Assembly (NCBI GenBank): GCA_048634225.1
Contig: JAIWAT010000001.1
Span: forward strand, 1 to 29,034
Origin: Anaerolineales bacterium
GTDB taxonomy: Archaea; Halobacteriota; Methanosarcinia; Methanosarcinales; Methanocomedenaceae
DNA length: 29,034 bases
Direction: 5' to 3'
Part shown: positions 5,288 to 29,034 of the stretch, one piece after another
Numbering within the stretch: the stretch's first letter is position 1
How the letters are laid out: every line of letters begins with the position of its first letter
Notes under the pieces: generated by a model
Databases searched by the model: none
Seen by the model: only the letters and a program-made list of their open reading frames with translations
Told to the model about the DNA's origin: nothing
Position numbers and translations under genes: made by a program

Positions 5288-5407
5288 TATTAGTGACTTC
5301 CATTATTCAATTTACTGCACTGATGCCTGTGCCCTTTCCATGCGATTCAGGTGTCCGGTTTTATGCACTGGGGATGTACCGCAGCTACATGAAATAATGC
5401 TAAAAAA

Positions 5408-6343
5408 TTATTTTAGTAGCTTATTAATATGTTGTCCAAAAACGGTTTGAAATTTTTCTGCGGTAATCATTAACCAATCAAAATATTGATCCCATTTTTC
5501 CTTTTGGTTAATATCTGCATCATTTGATAATTTAATTCTACTAGCTTTTTTCCCGTCAAGAGCCATCCATTCTAATTCTGCTTGTAATTCTTCCTCTATT
5601 TTATTTTTATTAGTTTCTAATTCGTAATAAAGGTCTTTGGAATCTGGAATATATATTTCACAGGCCATTAAATTTGTTTGACTATTAGTTGTTAATGAAA
5701 TATACGCCTTCGAGTTCCCAATACTAATATCATACCAATGTTGAGGATATGCTTTTCTTAATTTTAGTTGTGATGACTTATTTTGAGCATATTCTTTAAA
5801 TTGATTCCAAAAATCTAATTGCAAGACTTTGGTTTCTGTAAGATTTGATTGTCTAGTTGATTTCTTAACAGCTTTTGCCCAATCATTAGGTTTGGAAATA
5901 ATATTGAATTTTGGCGCACATGGGGAATTACCTATTTGCCATAATTCCATTTTTATTGCAAAAAAATTAACTTTTTCATCTGTATGTTCATTTAGCCAAT
6001 CAATTGCTTGTTTATGCTCATCTCTAACATCTTTTACAATCCAAATTATTATTTCAGCATCATAACCTGAAGCATAAGTAATCGTTTTACCTAAATGATC
6101 ATGATCAGTTACTTCCAGTTGATTTTCTATTACGATTTTTTTACCTGTATTCTCTTCTTCAGCTAATATATCTACATTAAATTTTCCTACACTTGCTTCA
6201 GTTTCTATTAATAAAATATCAATGCCAATTTCATCACTCAATAAAGCAAGATTTTCTTTTTCTGATAACCACGTTGTAAAATCAATTGCTTCATGATTCC
6301 ACACCTTTCTTAAGTCGACTTTTTTTAGTGTCTCTAATTGCAT
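5408..6343 (-). CDS. DUF4268-domain protein with an N-terminal PD-(D/E)xK (NucS/EndoMS-like) nuclease domain
   Basis: LRKVWNHEAIDFTTWL, VDILAEE...IVIENQL...DHDHLGKTITYA, and a C-terminal PQHWYDISIG...KASRI region. Confidence 0.8.
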   Translation of the reverse strand: MQLETLKKVDLRKVWNHEAIDFTTWLSEKENLALLSDEIGIDILLIETEASVGKFNVDILAEEENTGKKIVIENQLEVTDHDHLGKTITYASGYDAEIIIWIVKDVRDEHKQAIDWLNEHTDEKVNFFAIKMELWQIGNSPCAPKFNIISKPNDWAKAVKKSTRQSNLTETKVLQLDFWNQFKEYAQNKSSQLKLRKAYPQHWYDISIGNSKAYISLTTNSQTNLMACEIYIPDSKDLYYELETNKNKIEEELQAELEWMALDGKKASRIKLSNDADINQKEKWDQYFDWLMITAEKFQTVFGQHINKLLK

Positions 6344-6363
6344 GATTAAATTTTATGATTACA

Positions 6364-6381
6364 TTGTATAAATCTTTTTTG
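6364..6381 (-). promoter_or_regulatory. Putative BRE/TATA promoter of the DUF4268-hsd unit (leaderless mRNA)
   Basis: Minus strand reads AAAAAAGATTTATACAAT; TTTATA lies about 24 nt upstream of the ATG at 6343. Confidence 0.5.
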
Positions 6382-6449
6382 GATTTACTGTAATATTTCA
6401 AAACGGAAAAACTATGCAAATATTTTTAATATTCTAATAAATGGAAGCT

Positions 6450-6517
6450 AACTGCCGATGAACACAAATAAACGCAGATACAACCAAATCCGCATTCATC
6501 TGAGTGTATCTGCGGTT
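6450..6517. repeat. Hairpin A: imperfect inverted repeat, 30-nt arms built of three ~10-nt subrepeats, AAC...GTT termini
   Basis: AACTGCCGAT GAACACAAAT AAACGCAGAT [8-nt loop] ATCCGCATTC ATCTGAGTGT ATCTGCGGTT. Confidence 0.8.
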
Positions 6518-6524
6518 AACATTG

Positions 6525-6620
6525 AAATGCTTCCAGCCCCCCTCTCGCCTCCACTCTGCCCAGGTGCCCGTCCCGCTCAGCTCCGCCCGCCCTTGTGGTG
6601 TGGGGGCTGGCAGGCGCTTT
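6525..6620 (+). repeat. GC-rich direct repeat R1 (copy 1)
   Basis: Aligns with 7312-7417 (shared CCCCCTCTCGCCT, GGTGCCCGTCCCGCTC, TGGTGTGGGGG.TGGCAGGCGCTTT). Has an internal inverted repeat CCAGCCCCC / GGGGGCTGG. Confidence 0.9.
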
Positions 6621-6760
6621 TTCGGTGTCTTATATATAAATACGAATTAGTGTCTGGACTTCTGCATGAATATAGTAAATGAATATTTCAATATATTTGA
6701 GAACCAAAAAGATAAATAATTTAAACTCTGTTATTTCATTGAAAATTGGAATTGATTTGA

Positions 6761-6895
6761 ATGGGTAAAATAGAATCTCGTGAAAACGAGCCAAAAGACA
6801 AGAAAGCCGGTGTTTTGACAAATGAAGAGAAAAGACACCTCGAAGATAGCATGCACCATAATGACAAGCTTATGAGACAATTAGCACACATGTAG
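6761..6895 (+). CDS. Unannotated 44-aa peptide, candidate Doc antitoxin
   Basis: MGKIESRENEPKDKKAGVLTNEEKRHLEDSMHHNDKLMRQLAHM*. The C-terminal amphipathic helix ending in L..LA resembles Doc-neutralising antitoxin tails. It overlaps the doc 3' end by 15 nt. Below the ORF-track cutoff. Confidence 0.55.
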   Translation: MGKIESRENEPKDKKAGVLTNEEKRHLEDSMHHNDKLMRQLAHM

Positions 6896-7252
6896 TGGAC
6901 GGACTTTTTCTCTCAACCATTTTTCAATTTCTTCAACTGAACATTTATATTCAGCAATTTTAATAAGTGCTTGAAGTATTTCTTTATCATTTGCATGGAT
7001 ATGCATTCCTTCTTGCCTAAGTAGAATATCTGCAACTTGGAAACCAGTTCTCTTATTCCCATCCATAAATGGGTGACCAATGATTATGCTATGCATTACT
7101 AACGATGCTTTTTTAAGTACATCATTTTCTTTTATAAACAAATAAATAAGATATTCAATACTTCCTAAATTTAGGATTCCATTAAGGCCTCCATATTTTT
7201 CTATGACTTCATTATGAATCTCTATAATTTTCTGTGCAGTTAATTCACTCAT
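6881..7252 (-). CDS. doc: Death-on-curing (Doc/Fic) family toxin
   Basis: HPFMDGNKRTG Doc motif; IIEIHNEVIEKYGG N-terminus; 123 aa. Confidence 0.9.
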   Translation of the reverse strand: MSELTAQKIIEIHNEVIEKYGGLNGILNLGSIEYLIYLFIKENDVLKKASLVMHSIIIGHPFMDGNKRTGFQVADILLRQEGMHIHANDKEILQALIKIAEYKCSVEEIEKWLREKVRPLHVC

Positions 7253-7311
7253 TCAAATAACAAATACTCTTAAATGGAATTATAGGTTTTGTTAATGTTC
7301 CAAATTGTCTA

Positions 7312-7417
7312 AAATGCTCCACTCCTTCCGCCCCCTCTCGCCTTCACTCTACCCGGGTGCCCGTCCCGCTCTGCTCCACCCTGCCGCCCTTTTGGTGTGG
7401 GGGTTGGCAGGCGCTTT
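7312..7417 (+). repeat. GC-rich direct repeat R2 (copy 2)
   Basis: Second copy of R1 with small indels; both start AAATGCT and end GGCAGGCGCTTT. Confidence 0.9.
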
Positions 7418-7541
7418 AATAGTGCCACGTGGATGCATGGGTATCCGGTGGTTCGGGGGTGCGAAGTGGATGTTATGTTAGTTAGCTGCCGGTGACAGTT
7501 GAAATATATAATAAAAGATATGCATGTGGCTATCCCTACCC

Positions 7542-7576
7542 CTGCCACCGCAGCCCGTTAGGGCGGCAGGTGGCAG
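7542..7576. repeat. GC-rich hairpin with a bulge and a mismatch (REP-like)
   Basis: CTGCCACC GCAGCCC [GTTA] GGGCGGC A GGTGGCAG. Confidence 0.7.
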
Positions 7577-7604
7577 CCAACCTTGTGGATTTGTGTAAAC
7601 TTTG

Positions 7605-7674
7605 AACCGCAGAGGACGCGGAGTACGCAGAGCATTTTTCCTCTTCTCTGCGTACCTCTGCGAACTCAGCGGTT
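7605..7674. repeat. Hairpin B: imperfect inverted repeat with three 9-10-nt CGCAGAG subrepeats per arm, AAC...GTT termini
   Basis: AACCGCAGAG GACGCGGAG TACGCAGAG [loop] CTCTGCGTA CCTCTGCGAA CTCAGCGGTT. Confidence 0.85.
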
Positions 7675-7948
7675 GGTATTGAACTGATTCCAGGCCCGAG
7701 TGTATGAGTTTCTATGAGAGGCCGGGGTTTCAGGGTGGTGGAAAAGTACAGGCAGACCGATTTTCCTGACTCCGGATCATTCTGCTGTTTTACAGAAGCT
7801 ACAATATGCATTTTGAGGCAGCAGCATGTCCAATAACTAACAGTTTTCAACGAAAATTAGAGGTCAATTTGCTTTTCTTTGAAAGTCAAGTCAAACTCTG
7901 CCACATATCTGGAATAACATATTCCCTTAATAAGCAGGGTTGAGGTTT

Positions 7949-8236
7949 CTAAAACATACGCTCAAGGGCTTGCCTGGCAGGCATTCCCACTTCAATTCCC
8001 AGATCGTCCGCAGCCTTAGTGGCCTCAACCACACCGGCTGCCAGCACGTCCTCGAAATTCCTGACACCCGTCACCTTTACAGCCACGTCGTCCAGGCGTT
8101 CTGCCATGGATATATCCAGGTATCCGCACATTACAAAACCCCTGGGTGCCCTTATGACCAGCAGCGGCGCATGCTCCATATCAATTTTCAGGCCCAGTGC
8201 GGTGCCGTTTTCCAGTTCAATGGATTCGATTAGCAT
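7949..8236 (-). CDS. DUF1805 / YunC family protein
   Basis: PLLVIRAPRGFVMCGYLDI...AVKVTGVRNFEDVL family pattern; 95 aa. Confidence 0.85.
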   Translation of the reverse strand: MLIESIELENGTALGLKIDMEHAPLLVIRAPRGFVMCGYLDISMAERLDDVAVKVTGVRNFEDVLAAGVVEATKAADDLGIEVGMPARQALERMF

Positions 8237-8239
8237 ATC

Positions 8240-8339
8240 TTAATCCAGTATTTTTAGTTCTGATGACTGGCAGGCAGGACAGCTTACTTCCCATACCTTT
8301 GAATCTGTTACCACATGCACTGCATTCATATCTTGCCAT
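8240..8339 (-). pseudogene. Small zinc-ribbon protein gene with an apparent frameshift
   Basis: MARYECSACGNRFKGMGSK in one frame; CPACQSSELKILD* in a shifted frame, ending TAA-GAT-ATG at the DUF1805 start. The 100-nt span is not a multiple of 3. Confidence 0.6.
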
Positions 8340-8450
8340 GGCAGCAACGCTCAGGTCCACGCTATCGGCAGCGCTTGAATCAACAAAACACATATTATAC
8401 TGCACCTCATTAGATAGAAATCCATTATAGGTAATAAGATTTCTGCCGAA

Positions 8451-8479
8451 CCGGCAAACACTGGCAAACACTTATATAT
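8451..8479 (+). promoter_or_regulatory. Putative TATA promoter of the SPOUT/r-protein operon, with a tandem 10-bp repeat just upstream
   Basis: CCGGCAAACA CTGGCAAACA C TTATATAT; ATG follows at 8495 (leaderless-type spacing). Confidence 0.5.
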
Positions 8480-8494
8480 CTCTTACAATATCAT

Positions 8495-9409
8495 ATGCGG
8501 AAAGTACTTATGCCATCTTTAGCCCAGGACAGAAGAAGTCCAGACCTGACAATACTTATACCCTCATCCCTGACATCAGAAACAAGGGACAAGAGAATAA
8601 AGACGTACAAGGTCGGGCAGATTGCAAGAGCGGCATCAGTGTTCAGGGTCGGGAAGATAATCATCTACCGTGACCCGCAATTCGATGACAGTAGGTTTAT
8701 AGACCTGCTGCTGAGATATGCAGAGACACCACAGTACCTGCGAAAACACCTGTTCCCCCTCAGGGAGGAACTAAAGCATGCAGGGGTGTTACCGCCGCTA
8801 AGGACACTGCATCATCCCATCGAATCAAGATCATCGAACCTCAACGAAGGAGAATTCCGGGTTGGGGTAGTGGTCCCAGGACCACAAAAAAAGAAAAGCG
8901 AGAAAAAAGTCGGATCTGACAAGAGTGCATGGGTCGATATCGGAATCGATAGCCCGGTCCGCCTCGAAGCACCTTCAAGGAAAGTGCGGAATGGCGAGCG
9001 CATTAATGTCAGAATCTTTTCGCGAAGACCAATACAAGCAAAGCTGGTAACAAAGGACGAGATCCCCATGTATTGGGGATACCGTACAGCAGTAGAAGAC
9101 AGCCTGTCAGGGGCGCTGGAAAAGATTTCAGAAGAAGGTGCCCTGATAATCGCCACATCCCGCCAGGGTAAGTTGCTCGACAACACACTCCTGGCACAGA
9201 TCGGTGATCGGACAAAGCAGTCTAATAATACTGCTGTGGTATTTGGCTCACCCAGGCAAGGTATAGAGACCATACTGGCCGATGAGGGTTTCAAACTCCC
9301 GGACTTCCATTGTGAAGTGCTCAATACCATACCCGGACAGGGAACAGCCACAGTAAGGACAGAAGAGGCCGTATGGGCTACACTGTCTGCGTTGAACCTG
9401 GTCAGGTAA
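8495..9409 (+). CDS. SPOUT-family RNA methyltransferase (DUF171 / MTH1-like)
   Basis: KTYKVGQIARAASVFRV, YAETPQYLRK, VVFGSPRQG, NTIPGQGTATVRTEEA; conserved position upstream of rpl3 in archaea. Confidence 0.9.
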   Translation: MRKVLMPSLAQDRRSPDLTILIPSSLTSETRDKRIKTYKVGQIARAASVFRVGKIIIYRDPQFDDSRFIDLLLRYAETPQYLRKHLFPLREELKHAGVLPPLRTLHHPIESRSSNLNEGEFRVGVVVPGPQKKKSEKKVGSDKSAWVDIGIDSPVRLEAPSRKVRNGERINVRIFSRRPIQAKLVTKDEIPMYWGYRTAVEDSLSGALEKISEEGALIIATSRQGKLLDNTLLAQIGDRTKQSNNTAVVFGSPRQGIETILADEGFKLPDFHCEVLNTIPGQGTATVRTEEAVWATLSALNLVR

Positions 9410-9465
9410 GCTGACGACCGTCCCACCAGATGCGATAGGATAATCCTATAACCAGGAGGAAGAGA

Positions 9466-10482
9466 ATGGCAAATTTACACAGACCAAGGCGAGGATCACT
9501 GGCCTTCAGCCCGAGGAAAAGGGCAAAGAGCCAGATACCTACTATGAGATCATGGTCCGAAGGAAACAAAGAGCCCAAACTGGGCGGTTTTGCCGGATAT
9601 AAAGTGGGCATGACCCATGTGATCATGATGGACGATAAGCCCAAAAGTCTCACAGAAGGTACGGAAATTTCCGTTCCGGTGACAGTGCTCGAAGTACCTG
9701 CAATGAAAATTGCAGCGATCAGGGTATATGGAGAACCAGGACCCTACGGCACAAAAATACTGGGCGAAGCATGGTCCGGTGACCTTGACCCCACGTTAGA
9801 CAAAAAACTATTCACACCAAAGAAAGCCAATCCGCAAAAGGCACTTGAAAAGATAGGGAAACTAGTTGAAGAAGGAAAGGTAGCAAACATCCATTTGATC
9901 TCTTATACGCTCCCGTCCCTGATAGCAGGAATCCCAAAAAAGACGCCTGATGTGATGGAGAACAGGATAGTTGGCGGGGATATGGCCACCAGACTTGAGT
10001 ATGCAGCATCCTTGATAGGGAAATCAGTAGAAGTTTCTGAAATTTTCAATACCGGTGATATGATAGACGTATCGGCCATCACTATAGGTAAAGGTACACA
10101 GGGACCTGTGAAACGGTGGGGCATCAACCTGATGAAACATAAACACAGCAGACAGGGCAGTCTCAGGCAGATAGGCACCCTGGGACCATGGAACCCATCA
10201 AGAGTGAGCTGGCGGGTACCACAACTGGGCCAGACCGGTTATCAACAGAGGACAGAGTATAATAAACGTATCATCAAGATCGGTGAGAACGGTGAGGAAG
10301 TGACCCCCAGTAGCGGATTCTTAAACTATGGGGAAGTAAGCGGGAATTATATGCTGTTAAAGGGCAGTGTTCCTGGTCCAAAGAAGCGACTTATCAGGCT
10401 AAGACCGGCCATAAGGGGCGATAAACAGCAGATCAGTGCACCCCAGGTATCATATATCAGTGTGAAGTCAAAGCAGGGGTGA
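9466..10482 (+). CDS. rpl3: 50S ribosomal protein uL3
   Basis: [39 protein letters not shown]; GGAGG RBS. Confidence 0.98.
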
Positions 10483-10489
10483 ATAAGAT

Positions 10490-11245
10490 ATGAGTAAAGC
10501 AAAAATTATGGATATTACAGGAGCCTCTAAAGGCGATATCGAGCTCCCTGCTGTATTTGATGAGATGTACAGGCCAGACCTGATCAAGAAAGCTGTACTT
10601 GCAGCCCAGGCCAACAGGTTACAGGTCTACGGTCCCACACCCTATGCCGGTATGCAGACTTCGGCAGCTAACTGGGGTCCCGGCCGCGGTGCAGCCCGTG
10701 TACCCAGGATCAAGACAGGTAACCGTGTGGCCCGTATCACCCAGGCAAGGGGCGGCAGGAAAGCCCATCCACCCAAGGTTGAGAAAGATTATTCTGAGAA
10801 GATCAATAAGAAGGAACGTTACAGGGCCATCAATTCGGCCATTGCAGCCACTGCAAATCCCGAACTGGTCCGCAACAGGGGACACAAGTTCGATGCTGAG
10901 CTGCCCATTGTAGCTGATGACGGATTCCAGGATATCAAGACAACTAAAGAGGTTGTCGGGTTCATGGAAGCCATTAATGTGTACGATGATGTGATAAGGG
11001 CAAAGAACGGCAAGCACATCAGGGCAGGCGGAGGCAAGAGACGCGGACGCAAGTACAAGAAGCCCAAGAGCCTGCTTATTATAATAGGCGAAGATAACGG
11101 CATCGTACGTGCGGCAAGGAACCTATCAGGTGTGGACGTGATCAGTGTGAACAGGTTGAATACTGAACTGTTGGCACCAGGTACCCATGCAGGCAGGCTT
11201 GCCATATGGACTGAATCTGCCATCAAGGTATTAGGGGAGGAGTGA
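10490..11245 (+). CDS. rpl4: 50S ribosomal protein uL4
   Basis: [30 protein letters not shown]. Confidence 0.98.
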
Positions 11246-11248
11246 TCA

Positions 11249-11500
11249 ATGTCAGTAATATTACATCCATTTGTTACAGAGAAGGCCACATTCCATATCG
11301 AGGACGAGAACAAATTGCAGTTCGTGGTTGATATCAATGCCACCAAGGACCAGATCAAAAAAGAGATCGAGGAACTGTACGATATCCCGGTGCTTTCAGT
11401 GAGAACAATGATTACTATGAAAGGGAAGAAAAAGGCTATCGTATCCTTTGAAGGCGATAACACAGCCGGCGAACTTGCATCCAAACTTGGAATATTCTAG
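11249..11500 (+). CDS. rpl23: 50S ribosomal protein uL23
   Basis: PFVTEKA, NKLQFVVD, GKKKAIV. Confidence 0.97.
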   Translation: MSVILHPFVTEKATFHIEDENKLQFVVDINATKDQIKKEIEELYDIPVLSVRTMITMKGKKKAIVSFEGDNTAGELASKLGIF

Positions 11501-11515
11501 GGAAGGTGAAAAGAT

Positions 11516-12229
11516 ATGGGAAAAAGAATTATTTCACAGAACCGGGGTAAAGGAACACCCACCTATCGGGCACCCTCCCATAAGTTCAAGGCCAAGCTTA
11601 GACACATAAAAGTGGACAGGGACGAAACAGTCAAAGGCGAAGTCATTGAGATACTGCACGATACTGCCAGGTCTGCACCTATTGCCAGGGTCAGCCTGGA
11701 CAACGGGGAAGAACGCCTGATACTGATACCTGAAGGCATTGCAGTGGGGCAGGAGATCGCATGCGGTATTTCCGCGGAGATACTGCAAGGTAATACGCTG
11801 CCACTGCGAGAGATTCCTGAAGGCATACTGTTGTGCAATATAGAGAACAAACCCGGTGACGGCGGGCAGCTTGCCAGGTCAAGCGGTGTATATGCCGTAC
11901 TGATCGCCCATGATGTGGGCAAGACCGTGGTGCAGATGCCCAGTGGAGCATTGAAATGGCTGAATCCCGGGTGCAAAGCTACCATTGGCGTAGTGGCAGG
12001 CGGAGGCAGGGTCGATAAGCCCTTTGTGAAGGCCGGTAAGAAATATCATAAATTAAAGACAAGAGCAGCAAAGTATCCCAGGGTGTCCGGTGTGGCAATG
12101 AACGCCATAGATCACCCCTTCGGAGGCGGTGGATGGCAGCATCCGGGGAGACCCAAGACTGTAAGCCGAAGAGCACCACCAGGCAGGAAGGTCGGGTCCA
12201 TTGCGGCAAGAAGAACAGGAAAGAGGTGA
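11516..12229 (+). CDS. rpl2: 50S ribosomal protein uL2
   Basis: [41 protein letters not shown]. Confidence 0.98.
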
Positions 12230-12235
12230 TAAGGT

Positions 12236-12649
12236 ATGGCAAAGAAATCAACCACCAAACTGCCCAAGAGAAAGGGTGAGTTTACCTACCGGGGAAAGAC
12301 TCTCCAGGACCTGAAAAAGATGAGCCTGGAAGAGTTTGCTGAACTCTTACCTGCCAGACAGCGCAGGACCATCAGCCGCGGGCTTGGCGATGAACATAAG
12401 AAAATATTGAACAAGATCAATGACGGAGATACCACCATCAAGACACACCTGAGGGATATGATCATCCTTCCTGAGATGGTAGGCCTCAATCTGGAGATAC
12501 ACAACGGGAAGAGCTTCGAGAAGGTTGAGGTCATACCCGAGATGCTGGGACACTACTTTGGTGAATATTCCTTTACCCGTAGGCGGGTTTCACACGGTTC
12601 GGCCGGTGTAGGGGCTACCAAGTCCAGCAAGTTCGTACCGCTGAAGTGA
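12236..12649 (+). CDS. rps19: 30S ribosomal protein uS19
   Basis: [34 protein letters not shown]. Confidence 0.98.
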
Positions 12650-12663
12650 TGGAGGAAGATTAT

Positions 12664-13119
12664 ATGGCAAGAATTGCTTATTCAGCACAGGCAGACCCTG
12701 ATACTACATCAAGGGCCATGGGTCATGAACTCCATATTTCACCCAGGCATTCAAGGGAGATATGCAGGGCTATCAAAGGTATGAAGACCGACCAGGCAAT
12801 AAAGTACCTTGAGGATGTATCCGTCCTGAAACAGGCAGTCCCGTTCAAGCGTCATAACGACGGTATGGGACACCGCAGAGGTCACATGGCCGCAGGCAGG
12901 TATCCACAGAAGGCTGCAAAGGAGTTTATTAAGTTACTGGTGAATGCCGAAGCCAATGCCGAATATAAGGGACTGGATTCCGACAATATGAGGATAACAC
13001 ATATCGCTACCAAACAGGGCCGGGTCATCAGGGGCTACAGGCCGCGGGCAAGGGGCAGGTCATCTCCCAAGAACACAGAGACAGTGAATATAGAAATGAT
13101 AATCCAGGAGGTGCAGTGA
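12664..13119 (+). CDS. rpl22: 50S ribosomal protein uL22
   Basis: [24 protein letters not shown]; start placed after the GGAGG RBS. Confidence 0.97.
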
Positions 13120-13121
13120 AC

Positions 13122-14195
13122 ATGGGAATAGAAAGAAAGTTCGTGCAGGACGGGCTGACCAAGGCAAGGATCAATGAATATTTTACCAAACAGCTTGAAC
13201 GTGCCGGATACGGTGGAATGGTAATTAACCGTACGCCCATGGGCACCCAGATAACATTATTTGCAGAGAAACCTGGAATGGTCATCGGTAAAGGTGGCAA
13301 GACCATACACCGTCTTACCAATGATATGTCCTATGTTTATAGTATAGATAATCCCCAGATCGATGTACAGGAGATCAAGGTACCTGAACTCAATGCCCAG
13401 ATGATGGCAAATCGTCTGGCCAATGCACTTGAAAGGGGATGGTACTTCAGGAAAGCTGGTTATAACATGCTTCGCAGAATTATGGATTCGGGGGCATTGG
13501 GCTGTGAGATAGTCCTATCAGGAAAGTTCACAGGACCCAGGTCCAAGGTATCCAAGATGGTCGAAGGATATATCAAGCATGCAGGTAAACCGGCCGAAGA
13601 ACTGGTGGATACCGGTTTTGCCACTGCCGTGAAAAAGCTGGGTACTATCGGGTGCCGTGTACGTATTGTACAACCCGGCACTGAACTGCCAGGTAAGTTC
13701 TATATGCTAAAAGACGAAACTCCGGCCGCACCTGAGACCCCTGAACCTGAGGCAAAGGCAAAAGAAGGTATCAAAGAGGTACTGGAAAAGGCCCCGGAGG
13801 AGCCAGGGATGAAGAATATCAGGCAGGTAGGCAGTGTGTGGGAACACAAACACGATGACCTGGACTGGCATCCTATGTCCATACCCCATCCGGCTGCTGC
13901 AGCGGTCCCTGTGACCGAGGTCGCAGAAGAGGAAACGGTAACGGCTGTTGAAGTAGAACCCACTGTTGAAGCAAAAACCGCTGTTGAAGCAGAACCTACT
14001 GTTGAAGCAGAACCTACTGTTGAAGCAGAATCTACCACAAAGACAGTTGAAAAGCCTGTTCAATCGCCTGATATTGAATTGCCGGAAGGTGAACAGACAC
14101 GTATCAACGAAGGTGTGGAAGAACACAGACACGAAGGTTATGATTACTGGCACCCCAGTTCCAGGACACATAAAAACAAAGGAGATGAAGAGTAA
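13122..14195 (+). CDS. rps3: 30S ribosomal protein uS3 with a long C-terminal extension
   Basis: [13 protein letters not shown] (KH domain), [21 protein letters not shown]; start placed after GGAGGTG. Confidence 0.97.
13945..14034 (+). repeat. In-frame 18-bp tandem repeat x5 within rps3
   Basis: Units of CTGTTGAAG(C/T)A(G/A)AA.C.. at 13945, 13963, 13981, 13999 and 14017, encoding VE(A/V)EPT-like units. Confidence 0.95.
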
Positions 14196-14395
14196 TGGCG
14201 ATCCTGCGAGTGGACGAGATCCGTAACCTGAGCCGGGAAGAGAAACTGGACGAGCTGGAAAAACTTAATGCCGAACTCATAAGGGAACGTGCCATTGCAT
14301 CCTCAGGCGGTGCACCAGAGAACCCGGGCCGCATCGGTGAGCTGCGAAGGACCATTGCAAGGATCAAGACCATCCAGAAGGAGACCGGCGAATAA
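14195..14395 (+). CDS. rpl29: 50S ribosomal protein uL29
   Basis: [10 protein letters not shown]...[18 protein letters not shown]. Confidence 0.97.
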
Positions 14396-14405
14396 GAGGT
14401 AATAT

Positions 14406-14741
14406 ATGCAGATATCACCCCACAACCTCATCCATCACGAATTGATAGGTCTTGAGGTAGAGGTGGTTGACAGCACTAATCCATATCAAATAGGAATAAA
14501 AGGAACGGTGATCGACGAAACCAGGAATATATTGAAGATCGATGTGGACGGCGGGCATGTTAGAATGGTGTCCAAATCCCACACTGATTTCATATTCACA
14601 ATACCCGCGGGCAATGGCAGACGTTACCTGCCAGATACCCGAACGCGGGTTAAGGTAAAAGGAACTTTACTGCTCTCACAACCTGAAAACCGCATTCAGA
14701 CAAAGTTCAAGAAAAGCTTCAGACGAAGAAAGAATAAATAA
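14406..14741 (+). CDS. rnp1: Ribonuclease P protein component 1 (Rpp29/Pop4)
   Basis: NLIHHELIGLEVEV, GIKGTVIDETRN, PENRI; canonical position between rpl29 and rps17. Confidence 0.93.
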   Translation: MQISPHNLIHHELIGLEVEVVDSTNPYQIGIKGTVIDETRNILKIDVDGGHVRMVSKSHTDFIFTIPAGNGRRYLPDTRTRVKVKGTLLLSQPENRIQTKFKKSFRRRKNK

Positions 14742-14768
14742 ATATCATATAATAATGAGGAATATAAG

Positions 14769-15095
14769 ATGACACGAGACATAGGACTGGACATCAATGC
14801 TTCTCCTGATGAGGAGTGTAATGATATCAACTGTCCATTCCATGGGACGCTGCCAGTAAGAGGTCAGGTTTTTACCGGGTCAGTTGTCAGCAGTAAAATG
14901 GATAAGACAGTTGTTGTGAAGAGGACCTTTGAGAAACTGGTCACTAAGTATGAGCGATATGAGAAAAGGCAGTCAAAGTTGCATGCCCATAATCCCCCAT
15001 GTATCAATGCAAAAGAGGGGGACGTGGTAAAGATCGCTGAATGCAGGCCGCTCAGTAAAACCAAGAAATTCGTAGTGATCGAGGTGACCAAATGA
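14769..15095 (+). CDS. rps17: 30S ribosomal protein uS17
   Basis: [27 protein letters not shown]. Confidence 0.98.
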
Positions 15096-15490
15096 TCGGG
15101 ATGAAAGCCAAGATACCCCGTGCATTGAATGCCGGTGCCAGGCTGGACTGTGTAGACAATACAGGTGCCAGGCAGGTAGAGATCATTTCCGTGAAAAAAT
15201 ACAGGGGTGTCAAGAACAGGCATCCAAAAGGCGGAATAGGAGATATGCTGGTGGTCAGTGTAAAAAAAGGTACACCCGAGATGCGTAAGCAGATACTGAA
15301 TGCAGTGGTGATAAGGCAGAAAAAGGAATATAGGCGTCCGGACGGACTTCGTGTTTCCTTTGAGGATAATGCCGCAGTGATCACTGATCTGGACGGTATC
15401 CCAAAAGGTACCGAGATCAAGGGGCCGGTTGCCAGGGAAGCGGCTGAAAGATTCAGTAAGATAGCCACGGCAGCTTCAATTATAGTATGA
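15092..15490 (+). CDS. rpl14: 50S ribosomal protein uL14
   Basis: [27 protein letters not shown]. Confidence 0.98.
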
Positions 15491-15501
15491 GGTGCTTATC
15501 A

Positions 15502-15867
15502 ATGAAGATCGAATCCAAACAACCGAGAAAACAGCGCAAAGCACGCTATAATGCGTCGCTTCACCAGCGCCAGAAATTGATGAGTGTCCAGTTAAGTCAT
15601 GAACTCAGGGCCAAGTACAATAAGCGTAACATTCCTGTAAATGTGAATGACACTGTAATGGTCATGCGCGGTGACCATACCGGTACTGAAGGTAAGGTGG
15701 AACTGGTGGACTTAAAGAGAGGTACCATCGTAGTTGAAGGCGTTAGTGTGCCCAAGGCTGACGGTACTGAGGTACCCAGACCGGTACAACCGTCCAATGT
15801 AATGATAACCAAACTTGAACTCGATGACGACATAAGGAAACTTACCCTCAACAGAGGAGGCGAATAA
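15502..15867 (+). CDS. rpl24: 50S ribosomal protein uL24
   Basis: [27 protein letters not shown]; start placed after the GAGGTG RBS. Confidence 0.97.
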
Positions 15868-15869
15868 GA

Positions 15870-16586
15870 GTGAGCAGACATCAGAAGAGTGTGGCAGCAC
15901 CCAGGAGCTGGCCCATATCCAAGAAGGCTAATATCTGGGTGACCAAACCAAACCCGGGTCCCCACTCCCTTAAACAGGCCATCCCGTTGGGTGTGCTTAT
16001 CAGGGATATATTGAAATTAACAGATAATCTGCGTGAGACAAAGCGTGTCTTAAACGAGGGCAGCATACTGGTTGACGGTATTGTGAGAAGGGACCATAAG
16101 TTCCCTGTAGGCATCTTTGATGTTATCCAGGCCCCTAAGTTGGGAGTATCTTACAGGATGCTCCTGGACCCCAAGGGTCGATTAAGGCTCAACGAGCTGG
16201 ATGTGGATAAACCAAGGAAACCGTGCAGGATCCTCAACAAGACCACAGTCAAGGACGGCAAAGTACAGTTGAACCTTCATGACGGGACCAATATCCTTGC
16301 CGGTAATGACTATAAAACAAAGGACACGATCATTCTCGATATTCCTGAAAAAAGTGTACATAAACACATCAAGTACGAACCAGGGAACCTGGCTGTAGTC
16401 ATCGGCGGCACCCATTCAGGGCAGCTTGCCAAGATCAAGGAGATCAAGTCCGTACGCAGCAGCAGGCATAACATGGTGGTGCTGTCAAAGGATGATGGTA
16501 CAGAGTTTGAGACCATTGAGGATTACGTGTTCGTAGTTGGTACTGATAAACCGGAATTCAACCTGGGAGATGAGATCAATGAGTGA
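15870..16586 (+). CDS. rps4e: 30S ribosomal protein eS4
   Basis: GTG start; [32 protein letters not shown]. Confidence 0.97.
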
Positions 16587-17097
16587 GAATAATCTTATGA
16601 CAATACCCAGGGTAGATAAGGTCACAGTCCACATAGGCGTGGGCGAGAGTGGAGAGAGGCTCAATAAGGCAGAAGACATTCTTAGTGAGATCACCGGGCA
16701 GGGAGTTGTAAGGACAAAAGCCAAAAGAACACTGCAAACCTTTGCCATTAAGAAGAACGAACCTATCGGGTGTAAAGTGACACTAAGGAGTAAACTTGCA
16801 GAGAGTTTCCTTAAGACCAGTCTTGGCATTATCGAGAATTCACTTAGGGAATCCCAGTTCGATGATACAGGGAATTTCAGTTTCGGTATAGAGGAACATA
16901 CCGATTATGAAGGAATGAAGTATGACCCTAATATTGGTATTTATGGCATGGATGTGACTGTGGCACTGATCAAGCCGGGTTACAGGATAGGCAGGCGTAA
17001 GATTGGAAAACGAAAGATACCAAACAGTCACAGGATGACAAAGCAGGATGCCATGGCCTTTATAAATGAGTATTACGGTGTGGAGGTAGTGGCATGA
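16579..17097 (+). CDS. rpl5: 50S ribosomal protein uL5
   Basis: [41 protein letters not shown]. Confidence 0.97.
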
Positions 17098-17261
17098 ACA
17101 AAGAAACAGTCGCAGAGATAGAAAACAAGTTCGGCCGAGGAGCCAACGAGTGCCGCAGGTGCGGCCGGAAACAGGGTCTTGTAAGGAAATACGGAATATA
17201 CCTGTGCAGGCAGTGTTTCAGGGAAATTGCACCTGACATGGGATTTAACAAATATTCGTGA
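17094..17261 (+). CDS. rps14: 30S ribosomal protein uS14 (zinc-binding), missed by the ORF track
   Basis: 55 aa: [55 protein letters not shown]. Confidence 0.97.
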
Positions 17262-17271
17262 GGTGAATAAA

Positions 17272-17664
17272 ATGGTATTATTAGACCCACTGGCAGACGC
17301 ACTCTCAACCATAATCAATGCAGAGAGCACAGGTAAACCCGACTGCATCATACATCCAGCATCAAAACTGATAGGTAATGTATTGAAAGTAATGCAGGAT
17401 ATAGGGTACATTGGCAATTACGAGTTCATAGACGACGGCAAGTCGGGTATGATCAAAGTGGAACTTATTGGAAAGATCAACAAATGTGGAGTCATCAAAC
17501 CCAGGTCATCTGTGGGGTACCACGACTTTGAAAAATGGGAGAAACGCTACCTTCCGGCCCGTAATTTCGGTACCTTGGTACTGACCACGCCTGATGGGGT
17601 GCTGCCCCATAGTGAGGCCAGGTCCAGGTCAGTTGGCGGGCAATTGCTGGCATACGTGTACTGA
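17272..17664 (+). CDS. rps8: 30S ribosomal protein uS8
   Basis: [28 protein letters not shown]. Confidence 0.98.
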
Positions 17665-17674
17665 GGTGTGAAGA

Positions 17675-18211
17675 ATGCCAAAGGATTTGAAAAAGACACT
17701 GGACATTCCCGAGGGGGTCACTCTAGTACTGGAAGGTAACAGCATTTCAGTCACCGGTCCCAGGGGTTCATCTGTCCGTGAATTATGGTATCCGGGAATT
17801 GTCATAACGCTGGAGGAAAACCAGGTTATGGTGGACTCGTCCAACCAAAGGAAAAAACAGGTAGCTATGATGGGTACAATTGCGTCCCATATCAGTAATA
17901 TGATCAATGGTGTCACCGATGGATATACATACAGGATGAAGGTTGTATATTCCCACTTCCCGATCCAGTTGAAAGTGGTAGGGGATCACCTCAGTATCGG
18001 GAATTTCCTTGGCGAGAAGAAACCAAGGAAGGCAAAGATACAGGGTGACACAAAAGTGGAGACCAAAGGTGACGAAGTGATCGTTTCAGGTATAGCTATT
18101 GAAGATGTAGGCCAGACTGCAGCCAATATCCAGCAGGCGACCAAGATCAAAAGGTTTGACCCAAGGGTATTCCAGGACGGCATATACATGGTGGAGAAGA
18201 CGACAGCGTAG
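17675..18211 (+). CDS. rpl6: 50S ribosomal protein uL6
   Basis: YSHFPIQ, NFLGEKKPR, DPRVFQDGIY. Confidence 0.98.
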   Translation: MPKDLKKTLDIPEGVTLVLEGNSISVTGPRGSSVRELWYPGIVITLEENQVMVDSSNQRKKQVAMMGTIASHISNMINGVTDGYTYRMKVVYSHFPIQLKVVGDHLSIGNFLGEKKPRKAKIQGDTKVETKGDEVIVSGIAIEDVGQTAANIQQATKIKRFDPRVFQDGIYMVEKTTA

Positions 18212-26110: not shown

Positions 26111-26195
26111 GCCGAGGTAGTCTAGCGGTATGGCGCAAGCCTGGAAAGCTTGTGGGGCTTGGTTCCCCTCGGGAGTTCGAATCTCCCCCTCGGCG
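26111..26195 (+). tRNA. tRNA-Ser(GGA), long variable arm, CCA not encoded
   Basis: Acceptor GCCGAGG/CCTCGGC + G; anticodon arm CAAGC-CTGGAAA-GCTTG; variable arm GGGG/CCCC; T arm GGGAG-TTCGAAT-CTCCC. Confidence 0.96.
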
Positions 26196-26420
26196 CTTGT
26201 TTTTACAGGATGAGAGTGGGAACAAGAGCGATCTTTGTAGTAATGGGTAGGGTTATTAAAATGGCAAATGATTTTTTTTAATTCAAAAGGCGTAAAAAGT
26301 ACTCATAGAATGAAAGATATTATTAAATAGATAGTTTTATTCCATGTATATGTTGGTTATAGGGGATAATTGAAAAGAAATATTTATTGTCTCATATGAT
26401 TATCTTCAGATGAGGATTCA

Positions 26421-26729
26421 ATGATGAAGAAAGTTATCCAGCATAAACCAAAAGGGCTTCGTATTGAGATAGAAAAACTCGAAGGTCAATTTGAAATCCC
26501 AAATGTTAAAAAAATGCAGGAAGAATTGTTACATATGTTTAATAATCCTAAAGATTATACATGTTTATCTCAAGATGATATTGACAAAATATTTGGTCCT
26601 TGGGTTAACCTATCCCCAAAAGATAAGGCTCATGCCACGGCCAAAAGAACTTTTATAAAAATAAAAGAAACGATGTTTGTAGATGATGATTCCAATTGTC
26701 CAGAGTTTGATAATGCAGAAGATTTTTAA
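26421..26729 (+). CDS. Hypothetical protein (island cargo)
   Basis: 102-aa ORF preceded by GAGG; no family recognised. Confidence 0.6.
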   Translation: MMKKVIQHKPKGLRIEIEKLEGQFEIPNVKKMQEELLHMFNNPKDYTCLSQDDIDKIFGPWVNLSPKDKAHATAKRTFIKIKETMFVDDDSNCPEFDNAEDF

Positions 26730-27070
26730 TTTCCTGAAATATTACTATCGGTAATATGGCGCCCTGAAAAATCCATAATTATTCATCTTTAAAAAATCAT
26801 CTTAGCTATACGTTTGTTAAGTTAATTATCCTATAAACTATAGAAATATACTATATGCCACCTACAAACCCATTATTCAGTGTAAAATAAGTATGGTAAA
26901 CACATATTTAGGGGTGCCTGATAACGATTTTTAACATATTCAGGTGATAGCGTTTTTTCTGGTTATGTTCAACCTTTGGATATTACCAATAGTTATATTA
27001 GGCTTTATCTAAATGGAGTGTTTTTTTAAAATGTAAACTATTATATATTATGCTGTATGAAATTCAATAG

Positions 27071-27406
27071 GTGTTTATTGTGCTAACTGATCAACAATTT
27101 GCTACACTTATTGAAGCTCTAAAAATAATCCATAAAACAGCAGATAAAGGGGTTATAGATGATTTAGAAGATTATAAAAAAGTTATAACAGTATTAGAGG
27201 ATGGTAAAACTAATAAACCTGACATCGATGCAATAATTCGTTGGATTAGAAAAAAGGATCCAAAAGGGGACAAATATAAAGTTGCTCGATGTTTAGTATG
27301 GTATATTGCAAAAAAGAAATTAGAAATACCTGAAATTCAATCCGCAGATTTCCCATTTTGCAAATGCCCTAATGAATACAGATATCATATAAAAAGATAT
27401 AAATAA
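27071..27406 (+). CDS. Hypothetical protein (island cargo)
   Basis: 111-aa ORF with a GTG start and an upstream TATA-like run; no family recognised. Confidence 0.55.
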   Translation: MFIVLTDQQFATLIEALKIIHKTADKGVIDDLEDYKKVITVLEDGKTNKPDIDAIIRWIRKKDPKGDKYKVARCLVWYIAKKKLEIPEIQSADFPFCKCPNEYRYHIKRYK

Positions 27407-27563
27407 AATACACATAATAAACATCTTTATTTTTGTTTAAAACACAATATTATATGGATCGTTATTATTCTAATTATAACAATATTGATATATTCTAAAT
27501 TATCAAAATAAGTTTGTTTGTTAATCACATTTATACTAATTTTATTATAGGTGGAATGATGAA

Positions 27564-28094
27564 ATGCTAAGGAAAGATAATAAACGTAAATTTGTGAAAA
27601 CAGGATGGTGGATATTTACTCAATATATATTTTCAAATGGGAATTCGACTGTCACATATTCTGACGATGATTATCAAATATGTGTAGAAGGTCAAAAGAA
27701 AGCACCCACTTTAGTTATGATTGATGAATCATCAAATAAAAGATGGTGGATGTATAAAAATGAATTTTATTGGGAGGACGAGAATTATTCCCAAAAAGAA
27801 GTAAATGCCCTCATATTTGAAAGGGAACATAAGAAAAAAAAGAAGATAAATAAAGCAATTTCTTTGATGAGTCGAGAAAAGATTCCAAATAAAAACAAAC
27901 GGGAAATGGTACCTGAAGATGTTAGACTTTATGTATGGAATCGAGATGGTGGAAGATGTGTTAAATGTGGCAGCCAGAAAAAAATTGAATATGATCACAT
28001 CATACCAGTATCAAAAGGAGGAAGCAATACAGCACGAAATATCCAAATTCTTTGTGAAGAATGTAATCGTTCTAAAGGAGATTCTTTAGTTTAA
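27564..28094 (+). CDS. HNH endonuclease (McrA-like, zinc-binding)
   Basis: VWNRDGGRCVKCG...EYDHIIPVSKGGSNTARNIQILCEECNRSKG; GGTGG RBS. Confidence 0.92.
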   Translation: MLRKDNKRKFVKTGWWIFTQYIFSNGNSTVTYSDDDYQICVEGQKKAPTLVMIDESSNKRWWMYKNEFYWEDENYSQKEVNALIFEREHKKKKKINKAISLMSREKIPNKNKREMVPEDVRLYVWNRDGGRCVKCGSQKKIEYDHIIPVSKGGSNTARNIQILCEECNRSKGDSLV

Positions 28095-28184
28095 CCATGA
28101 TACACTCAAATATATCTTTACACAGTGTTTTGAAACTCAATGTTTTAGACAGCTTTTTAAAGAACTTCATATTAATATATCATT

Positions 28185-28409
28185 ATGACAAAACCAGGAT
28201 ACACTCACGTATTTATACCAAAATCTTTTCACAGTCTTTTGAAAGAGAAAGCAGAATGTGAAAAAACCAGTATCTGGCGATACATTGAGAATTTAATGCA
28301 AACTGGCAATTTTAAGCCTGGAAAGCTTGTGGGGCCTGGTCCCCCTCAGGAGTTCGAATCTCCCCCTCGGTGCTTTATTATTCTATGGTTTTTGTTATAT
28401 TTTATATAA
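28185..28409 (+). CDS. Ribbon-helix-helix-like ORF reading through the att copy; candidate int(N) fragment of a split SSV-type integrase
   Basis: THVFIPKSFHSLLKEKAECEKTSIWRYIENLM fits a beta-alpha-alpha pattern; codon 44 begins exactly at the att repeat (28314). Confidence 0.65.
   Translation: MTKPGYTHVFIPKSFHSLLKEKAECEKTSIWRYIENLMQTGNFKPGKLVGPGPPQEFESPPRCFIILWFLLYFI
28314..28375 (+). repeat. att site: duplicate of the tRNA-Ser 3' portion
   Basis: AAGCCTGGAAAGCTTGTGGGGCCTGGTCCCCCTCAGGAGTTCGAATCTCCCCCTCGGTGCTT versus 26137-26198. Confidence 0.95.
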
Positions 28410-28434
28410 CGAAACGTTTTTAAATATATAACGA
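28394..28434. promoter_or_regulatory. Candidate operator/promoter of the HTH-MNT gene
   Basis: Palindrome GTTATAT-TTT-ATATAAC (28394-28410); TATATAACGA repeated at 28403 and 28425. Confidence 0.45.
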
Positions 28435-28448
28435 TATGTACAATTTAT

Positions 28449-29006
28449 ATGTACGATTTGAGCCATGTATTCACGAAATCAAATCTTAAGATTCTCAGAC
28501 TTTTGAAGAAGGAAGAGGGGTTATATATCAGGGAGATTGCAGAAAGACTTGCTATATCGCCTTTTTCTGTCCACAATTCGATCAAGTTATTTAAAAGATT
28601 GGGGTTTGCCGAGGTAAAGAAAGTCAAAAACAGGAAAACAATCTATCTGGTCAGGGATAATCCTATACTTAAAAAAATATTTTCGTTGATAAATATTTCA
28701 GACCTATCAGGGAATAAGAACTTTAAAAGGCTAATGAAATCAGGAAAGGTGGGGGTTTACGGTAGTTTTGCATCAGGCGAGGATACTAAACATAGCGACA
28801 TTGATCTATGGTGCTATAAGCAGGAAAAAGTTTCAAATATTGAACTAAGAGAAATCACCAGGGAGATTGAGAAGGACTTTGGGATGGAAGTAAAACTATT
28901 TGTTTTGAGTGACTCAAAGATAAAGGATATAATGGATAATGACCCTGAATTTTTTTACCGGTTGAAATTGAGTTCAATAGCTGTAAATGGTGATGTGTTT
29001 GGCTGA
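28449..29006 (+). CDS. Winged-HTH + minimal nucleotidyltransferase (MNT) antitoxin-like protein
   Basis: LYIREIAERLAISPFSVHNSI (HTH); VYGSFASGEDTKHSDIDL (GS...DxD nucleotidyltransferase motif). Confidence 0.9.
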   Translation: MYDLSHVFTKSNLKILRLLKKEEGLYIREIAERLAISPFSVHNSIKLFKRLGFAEVKKVKNRKTIYLVRDNPILKKIFSLINISDLSGNKNFKRLMKSGKVGVYGSFASGEDTKHSDIDLWCYKQEKVSNIELREITREIEKDFGMEVKLFVLSDSKIKDIMDNDPEFFYRLKLSSIAVNGDVFG

Positions 29007-29034
29007 AGTTGAAAGATGTTTCAATAAGGGGTTA
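28999..29034 (+). CDS. Start of a probable HEPN-domain partner gene (3'-truncated by the window)
   Basis: GGTGA RBS then TTG GCT GAA GTT GAA AGA TGT TTC AAT AAG GGG TTA = (M)AEVERCFNKGL, overlapping the MNT stop. This resembles recalled archaeal HEPN starts; only 12 codons are visible. Confidence 0.45.
   Translation, partial: MAEVERCFNKGL

Follow-up and report, generated by a model that had tools for sequence, protein, structure and literature searches.

Introduction

Suicidal (type I) integrases of the SSV1/SSV2 type carry the attachment site attP inside the integrase open reading frame (ORF), and when the element inserts into a tRNA gene at its 3' part, this ORF is split into an N-terminal and a C-terminal part, int(N) and int(C). 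Here, we analysed a 29,034-nt stretch of archaeal DNA (hereafter the window), which is the entire contig C1 (JAIWAT010000001.1) of assembly GCA_048634225.1, and a small island in it that lies between two copies of the 3' part of a tRNA-Ser(GGA) gene. The island is probably a trapped relic of an element with a suicidal integrase, in which an HNH nuclease gene has been captured by the host. The assembly comprises 1.29 Mb in 140 contigs, is 57% complete and has a mean GC content of 44.9%. Its source belongs to a 19-species family whose order also includes Methanoperedens, and because of this position and the cold-seep habitat it is regarded as an archaeon similar to anaerobic methanotrophic archaea of group 2 (ANME-2).

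Relics of such a process, named 'gene capture', were reportedly described by She and co-workers in 2001 from the chromosomes of Sulfolobales, Aeropyrum and Pyrococcus. In gene capture, integrated elements are trapped by the partition of their integrase gene and degenerate, but fragments of int(N) and int(C) and repeats derived from the tRNA still enclose some of the cargo. The present case differs in its ANME-2-like host and in the retained cargo, an HNH gene that appears to be under selection. Another way in which an integrase-less island can persist is known from streptococci, in which cis-mobilisable elements (CIMEs) consist of cargo flanked by attachment (att) sites and are mobilised by the integrase of a related element. 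A non-autonomous satellite at our locus would work in the same manner, but CIMEs are bacterial and depend on a classical, non-split integrase, whereas mobilisation of the island is hypothetical.

The suicidal integrases of the pT26-2 family are euryarchaeal and have variable tRNA specificity (Badel et al. 2020, PMC7253208; reviewed in PMC8371274). In this family, one att can be translated in different frames and the N- and C-parts form hybrids (PMC7253208; PMC8371274). Five members were reported from Methanosarcinales, and tandem or multiple integrations at one site were reported never to have been observed for suicidal integrases (PMC7253208). In addition, a cryptic element named NitEve-E3, whose split integrase resembles that of SSV1, is integrated in the genome of a thaumarchaeon (PMC6563490). 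Like the island, NitEve-E3 has a split integrase but no viral genes, and its host is not a thermophile (PMC6563490); it keeps both integrase halves, whereas the island has lost the catalytic half.

Compared with the SSV1/SSV2-type elements, the family to which the island belongs shares the attP inside the integrase ORF, the splitting on integration into a tRNA 3' part, and a catalytic domain that matches PF16795. However, its hosts are Methanosarcinales of mesophilic or cold-seep habitats and further archaea from sediments, the N-part is a 43-aa domain of predicted ribbon-helix-helix (RHH) type after which the att begins only 0-10 codons later, and the catalytic half is missing from the island of the window.

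Results

Insertion of the island into the tRNA-Ser(GGA) gene

The only tRNA gene that ARAGORN detected in the window, tRNA-Ser(GGA), lies downstream of a cluster of ribosomal-protein, adk, cmk and cbf5 genes (Table 1). A preliminary description of the locus had reported 62-bp direct repeats 2177 bp apart, and a repeat search confirmed them, with 58 of the 62 positions identical; about 1e-21 such pairs would be expected by chance in the window. The 2115 bp that separate attL from attR have a GC content of about 28% (range 26-33%), compared with 48-55% upstream, and all ORFs of the island are on the + strand. Empty tRNA-Ser sites, which the same description had proposed to look for in relatives, were found in precise form in four genomes (G005, G002, G008 and G014). 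In these genomes, the sequence that follows attR in the window directly abuts tRNA-Ser, with 90-97% identity to the window, and the 2177 bp are therefore an insertion with duplication of the target.

The island and its distal junction were also found, almost unchanged, in contigs of four independent cold-seep metagenome studies and are therefore not an assembly artefact. For example, record 5 of X1 spans 26190-28161, record 6 spans 28242-28401, and one metagenome piece bridges int(N), attR and the flank. The four mismatches between the att copies had been taken as a sign of age. We rejected this estimate because two of the mismatches recur in the distal att of other genomes: the mismatches at positions 28 and 35 are both found in G014, and the one at position 35 also occurs in the metagenome contig L059, so that the mismatches provide no clean clock. 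Judging from this recurrence, some of them may derive from the attP of the element rather than from age.

ORF4 is the N-terminal part of a split integrase

The last ORF of the island, ORF4, runs in frame into the distal att, as described before. The 80-aa product that had been proposed to result from excision, with its stop at 26248-26250, was also reproduced; its residue 66 is R or C depending on the crossover point. The 43-aa N-terminus of ORF4 has homologues in other genomes of the order, and every homologue examined enters tRNA-derived sequence. The tRNAs that are entered differ, namely Leu(CAA), Lys(CTT), Met and, in antisense, Thr(CGT), and overall the att types following Int(N) homologues comprise tRNA-Leu, Lys, Met, Thr and Ser. 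The proposed link of these ORFs to att sites and integrases is thus upheld.

A profile search with this N-terminus among 1.84 billion representatives gave 187 clusters, nearly all of 42-180 aa, with tails that in nearly all cases are translated tRNA fragments. Several cluster members extend into the integrase core-binding domain, for example P0014 with ...PGKLVGLGSPREFESPPRRLFLQDESVNQSDFTNDCINIKDFEKFLLVQRNL... in its sequence. The clusters are spread over ANME-1, ANME-2, Methanoperedens, Bathyarchaeia, Nitrososphaeria and Methanocellaceae. Fifteen named archaeal genomes, including Methanoperedens, Methanocellaceae, ANME-1, Methanomicrobiales, Bathyarchaeia, Hecatellales and Nitrososphaeria, were inspected, and a tRNA or tRNA fragment follows directly after the RHH domain in 13 of them, the copies in the other two being truncated. 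The preliminary description had suggested using the 43 residues to find full-length integrases; the best 150 matches were short ORFs or partial fusions, with no full-length integrase among them. Int(N) had no match in phage and plasmid collections. In a scan of viral contigs, two loci were detected, at which Int(N) heads either towards a tRNA-Ser(GCT) or towards the end of the contig, but a free circle was not among them.

The RHH call of the preliminary description is supported by the AlphaFold2 model of the domain (pLDDT 87), in which an extended segment (residues 1-12) precedes two helices (13-25 and 30-40), and by fold comparison. With few exceptions, the best matches in Foldseek belong to RHH proteins (Arc, NikA, ORF56 and antitoxins), with TM scores of 0.5-0.74 at E-values of only 0.2-2, and profile matches were obtained to AvtR (E 0.024) and Arc (E 0.15); no Pfam family matched the domain. 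The N-terminal strand and two helices in about 45 aa would thus place it in the RHH (MetJ/Arc/CopG) superfamily. Because its homologues enter tRNA sequence, because of the genome G100 and the contiguous genes described below, and because of the strand-helix-helix fold, we conclude that ORF4 is an Int(N) fragment and stems from a split (suicidal) integrase whose N-terminus is of the RHH type.

Complete and contiguous integrase genes in relatives

The SSV1-type geometry that had been recognised at the locus is borne out by three observations in relatives. First, G100 contains a complete 9.3-kb element between two identical 58-bp att copies. A homologue of ORF4 enters one att, and a 263-aa ORF with the HxxR...Y residues runs from the other att in the same frame. 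This Int(C) matches PF16795, the SSV-type "archaeal phage integrase" family (36 bits against a cut-off of 27), and also PF00589, and the frames of the integrase halves agree in G103 as well. Second, contiguous Int(N)-att(Ser)-Int(C) reads were found in metagenomes (P0014, P0154 and P0151/L059), although such fused reads occur only as contig- or stop-truncated genes. P0154 and P0153 translate the att(Ser) in a different frame from P0014 and P0151, so that the variation of the att frame known from the pT26-2 family recurs here. Third, L059 has 93.7% identity to the window over 4.2 kb of flanks and carries the int(N) end, the att and the int(C) start contiguously. The ends of the island match this junction at about 94% but are circularly permuted relative to it, as predicted if a circle with the gene order int(N)-attP-int(C) had integrated. 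Compared with SSV integrases, the catalytic domain of the family shows a weak match with 26-28% identity.

The G100 element lies in a tRNA-Thr(CGT) gene of a Methanoperedens-like genome (L051:10282-19631, G100:C48), and its cargo includes a 701-aa NosD/beta-helix protein with dockerin, an ArdC-N-like protein, a PDDEXK-like ORF, and a 750-aa protein without a Pfam match that is a possible replication protein. In G068, an int(N) (C42:42516, L034) and a truncated int(C) (C3:5713-6075, L086) with the same tRNA-Leu(CAA)-derived att lie on separate contigs, and there is no att or tRNA in the 20 kb upstream of the int(N). This arrangement may represent a large element or a chromosomal rearrangement between elements.

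A stub of Int(C) and the missing catalytic half

Read in the att frame, the 52 bp of the window that follow the tRNA (26199-26250) encode LFLQDESGNKSDLCSNG and then a stop. The same sequence opens Int(C) in contiguous genes with a tRNA-Ser att (P0151, P0014, P0156 and L090), and it is also present in stubs 3' of the tRNA in G003, G007, G015 and G014. The score of the in-frame stub beyond the att was 59, compared with 24 +/- 4 for shuffled sequences and another frame. The frame in which ORF4 crosses attR is also the att frame of the stub behind attL; this agreement is also seen in G100, G103 and the contiguous genes P0014, P0154 and L059. An HMMER match extends over 26137-26430 across nine stops, and on sequence grounds a decayed continuation of the stub, with more stops, is possible to about 26290, past which the match is not significant.

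The absence of a tyrosine-recombinase domain after the tRNA, pointed out before, was confirmed. Neither PF00589 nor PF16795 matched the window contig, and the catalytic half was absent from the window and the assembly in searches with both profiles and in tblastn with four int(C) queries. Because the catalytic domain (R..HxxR..Y) is absent here and present in members of the family, we classify the island as a remnant rather than a functional member. In the 19 genomes of the host family, an intact int(C) of the subfamily was not found; intact copies are present in Methanoperedens genomes. The only matches in the assembly, unrelated integrases on contigs C17 and C139, were rejected as the catalytic half. 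The former (G000:C17:9713-11020, L001:1042-2349) is a 435-aa classical-type tyrosine recombinase with a C-terminal double zinc ribbon, and the latter (G000:C139:1512-2093) is a classical-type fragment at a contig end that does not have the first half of the catalytic domain.

With both integrase ends identified, it can be asked whether a mobile element is needed at all, or whether a local partial duplication of the tRNA or an assembly chimera is followed by an in-frame ORF by coincidence. An open frame over 62 GC-rich bases is not improbable alone, and the left junction lies within the repeat, where short contigs break. However, Int(N) is linked to att sites and Int(C) throughout the family, the Int(C) stub is accompanied by the GC contrast, and the junctions are reproduced in independent metagenomes. 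We therefore consider a coincidental origin extremely improbable.

Mosaicism at the tRNA-Ser(GGA) locus

The island has a mosaic structure. A shorter variant of it, with about 0.9 kb between the att copies, is found on L090, a metagenome contig of 1.6 kb, in the order att, Int(C) stub (intact over about 55 codons), HNH gene, int(N), perfect att and another flank. Its int(N) corresponds to the second, degenerate copy of the window (28096-28150), which in L090 is whole and enters the att. On its right flank, L090 has a methyltransferase gene, and the 3' end of this gene is also found in G014, downstream on the contig with tRNA-Ser; L090 is therefore probably the same locus as the window and not a new insertion. 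In another contig, L089, only the HNH segment is common to the window, within a larger AT-rich element, and loose ends of metagenome contigs show further Int(C) variants 3' of the tRNA. The second int(N) fragment and the L090 variant point to repeated integration, recombination and deletion. The tRNA-Ser(GGA) locus beside cbf5 is thus a multi-insertion hot spot, at which elements piled up, recombined and were trimmed. Different from what was reported for the pT26-2 family, L059 contains the att in triplicate as well as an uninterrupted int(N)'-att-int(C) junction, and the window contains remains of two int(N) copies.

At this locus in a relative, L059 (JGI 3300028385 contig, 4477-17826) shows an array in which the att occurs three times. 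An Int(C) stub, a 347-aa ORF and a gene for a GIY-YIG nuclease lie in a 1.8-kb mini-island, and the array also contains a host-like PIN/MatE block; these are followed by an N-truncated int(N), an att and a C-truncated int(C) in one frame, adjoining the gene for a 2140-aa NosD/beta-helix protein. On the right flank of the window island lies a gene for a nucleotidyltransferase with a winged helix-turn-helix domain (wHTH), which in G005 is followed by a short ORF with a HEPN domain (PF05168), matching the PADLOC candidate PDC-M05A. G002 and G014 carry this nucleotidyltransferase/HEPN module, of about 1.1 kb, between two nearly full-length tRNA-Ser copies (module coordinates: window 28449-29034; L024:1360-2149; L025:1213-2483; L029). 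It looks like another integrase-less mini-island, of the MNT/HEPN toxin-antitoxin type, and the predicted second tRNA copy, about 0.4 kb past the end of the window contig, probably explains the assembly break.

Cargo genes and selection

Besides the integrase ends, the island carries three cargo ORFs (Table 1). A search of the order's other 283 genomes gave no match to ORF1, and ORF2 has a single clear homologue in the genomes of the order (G005:C13, 39% identity). The HNH endonuclease ORF3 has 540 homologues, many of about 180 aa, with only domain-level matches in the genomes of the order. Between the window and the L090 copy, whose proteins are 95% identical, the ratio of non-synonymous to synonymous substitution rates (dN/dS) of the HNH gene is 0.16, a value that indicates purifying selection. 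Across distinct elements, the dN/dS of int(N) is 0.05-0.68 and mostly below 0.3. Compared with its closest relative (L058), however, the int(N) of the window shows 12.8 non-synonymous and 1.2 synonymous changes, which fit neutrality (P=0.24) and not an omega of 0.2, the degree of constraint usual in the family (P=4e-4). By this comparison, it has apparently evolved neutrally in recent times, and the integrase parts would therefore drift while the nuclease gene is maintained. Between the HNH gene of L089 (6001-6528) and that of the window (27564-28094), dN/dS is about 1.3 (73.5 non-synonymous and 13.5 synonymous changes), a contrast that suggests fast divergence at the protein level or decay in one lineage.

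Table 1 Features of the tRNA-Ser(GGA) island and its surroundings (positions in the window).
Feature	Coordinates	Strand	Evidence
tRNA-Ser(GGA), intact, integration target	26111-26196	+	ARAGORN; att part identical to the tRNA of genus relatives
attL, proximal 62-nt repeat (3' 60 nt of the tRNA plus 2 nt)	26137-26198	+	Repeat search
Int(C) stub, 17 codons (LFLQDESGNKSDLCSNG) plus stop, att frame	26199-26250	+	Matches the 5' end of intact or longer int(C) genes
ORF1, 102 aa, orphan cargo	26421-26729	+	No Pfam, PHROG or PADLOC match
ORF2, 111 aa, cargo without family match	27071-27406	+	No Pfam, PHROG or PADLOC match
ORF3, 176 aa, stand-alone HNH endonuclease, McrA-like family	27564-28094	+	PF14279 and PF01844, about 1e-12
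Degenerate 5' fragment of a second int(N), 10-bp deletion	28096-28150	+	Alignment with int(N) genes; directly 3' of the HNH stop
ORF4, Int(N), 74 aa	28185-28409	+	Predicted RHH domain (28185-28313), then attR in frame, then 11 flank codons
attR, distal 62-nt repeat, 4 mismatches to attL	28314-28375	+	Repeat search and att comparison
Right flank, outside the island, with wHTH-nucleotidyltransferase gene (28449-29006)	28376-29034	+	Pfam Polbeta/NTP_transf_2 and HTH

The maintenance of the nuclease gene raises the question of whether the nuclease itself drives the island: an HNH homing endonuclease could cut island-free tRNA-Ser alleles, repair would copy the island, and the integrase ends would hitch-hike. 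Consistent with this explanation, the HNH gene is the conserved core common to the window, L090 and L089, adjoins int(N) and att, and carries the signature of purifying selection, and the other mini-island at the locus (L059) has a GIY-YIG nuclease gene just before the att. However, there is no target-site evidence, the HNH family is annotated as McrA-like and is widespread in bacteria in unrelated contexts, and homing does not produce att duplications. As the pattern is also based on two cases, we consider homing very unlikely.

Discussion

The island is probably a trapped relic, in the sense of gene capture, of an element with a suicidal integrase. In the free circle of such an element, the integrase gene would encode the RHH domain, attP, and the core-binding and catalytic domains, with an attP identical to the 3' part of tRNA-Ser(GGA). 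Recombination with the chromosomal tRNA would split the gene, so that Int(C) lands right after the restored tRNA, whereas Int(N) comes to lie at the opposite end and continues into the second att copy. Subsequently, deletions as well as recombination with further elements of the hot spot would have removed Int(C) except for the 17-codon stub and left the second int(N) fragment. As a consequence, the element would lose its capacity to excise by itself, and the HNH nuclease gene would be kept by selection, that is, captured by the host. The remnant may represent one or more integrative elements with an SSV-type tyrosine integrase. The repeats, the empty site, the family membership of Int(N), the Int(C) stub, the missing catalytic domain and the mosaicism were observed directly, while the order of these events and the full integrase of the original element are what we infer from them.

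Several points weigh against this explanation. Int(N) is still encoded by an intact ORF and most of the sequence of the two att copies has been retained, so that excision by a foreign integrase would still be possible. The continuation of the stub past 26250 is weak evidence, and the similarity to L090 breaks off abruptly at 26246, which could just as well be due to a recombination breakpoint. Since the genome is 57% complete, a helper integrase could lie outside the assembly, and the contig stops 659 bp past attR with the rest of the array beyond it. The read evidence consists of Logan contigs, which drop rare circles or excised alleles. One metagenome contig joins 26217 to 28315 (side 39), which may be another stub/att arrangement in a different strain.

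The preliminary description had offered two interpretations, a deletion-trapped relic and a non-autonomous satellite. The relic is favoured because a remainder of Int(C), the 17-codon stub, can still be identified behind the tRNA, and the satellite has become the less favoured of the two. According to the latter, the Int(C) stub, the cargo, Int(N) and two att sites form a unit that is moved in trans by related suicidal integrases, encoded by elements that share the cell or superinfect it. Such a unit has what it would need, with both att sites present and an intact int(N) with its own start, and an even smaller version of about 0.9 kb, with the stub, the HNH gene and int(N) between two att copies, is known from another metagenome, where its right flank differs. 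In the same type of community, there are integrase genes (L059 and L057) whose att is identical to the tRNA of the window, and excision in trans of split-integrase elements by related integrases is accepted (PMC8371274). However, these tRNA-Ser-type integrase genes in the retrieved contigs (L059 and L057) are themselves truncated, no helper integrase was found in the incomplete assembly, and no intact one in the 19 genomes of the family. Among 284 genomes, ORF1 has no homologue and ORF2 one clear homologue, and no family that conserves the cargo is visible there. Moreover, L090 is probably the same locus, so that the island has been seen at one locus only, and its int(N) appears to have been recently neutral. 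No circle or excision joint was found in the contigs of the four studies, contigs in which rare forms are dropped. On balance, we regard a satellite as unlikely.

A more far-reaching proposal is that the minimal unit, namely the stub, the HNH gene and Int(N)-RHH between two tRNA-Ser att sites (about 0.9 kb in L090 and 2.1 kb in the window), is a real non-autonomous element of ANME-2 populations. It would persist through excision and re-integration in trans, through nuclease homing or through both, with the severed RHH protein still acting on the att region. We think that this is distinctly improbable.

Compared with previous reports, the architecture, the PF16795 catalytic family, and the occurrence of type I integrases in Methanosarcinales (PMC7253208) and in a thaumarchaeon (PMC6563490) are already known. 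Modestly new are the RHH nature of Int(N), as predicted, and the breadth of the Int(N) family in sediment archaea, together with the att arrays at one locus and the retention of the nuclease cargo. Particularly, the att arrays at tRNA-Ser(GGA) contrast with multiple integrations being "never observed" for this type of integrase (PMC7253208).

In conclusion, the island shows, as a clean and well-anchored case, how captured DNA is left behind in the chromosomes of archaea by split-gene integrases, and it comes from uncultured methane-oxidising cold-seep archaea, in which mobile elements are poorly known. The known mechanism is unchanged by these results, which describe a known fate in a new lineage, where an HNH cargo gene apparently stays under selection while the integrase parts decay. 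In addition, short MTKxGYTH... ORFs that end in tRNA-like sequence can be read as the severed, predicted RHH N-termini of such integrases, and they can be used as a simple marker for integrated elements and their att sites in mesophilic archaea.

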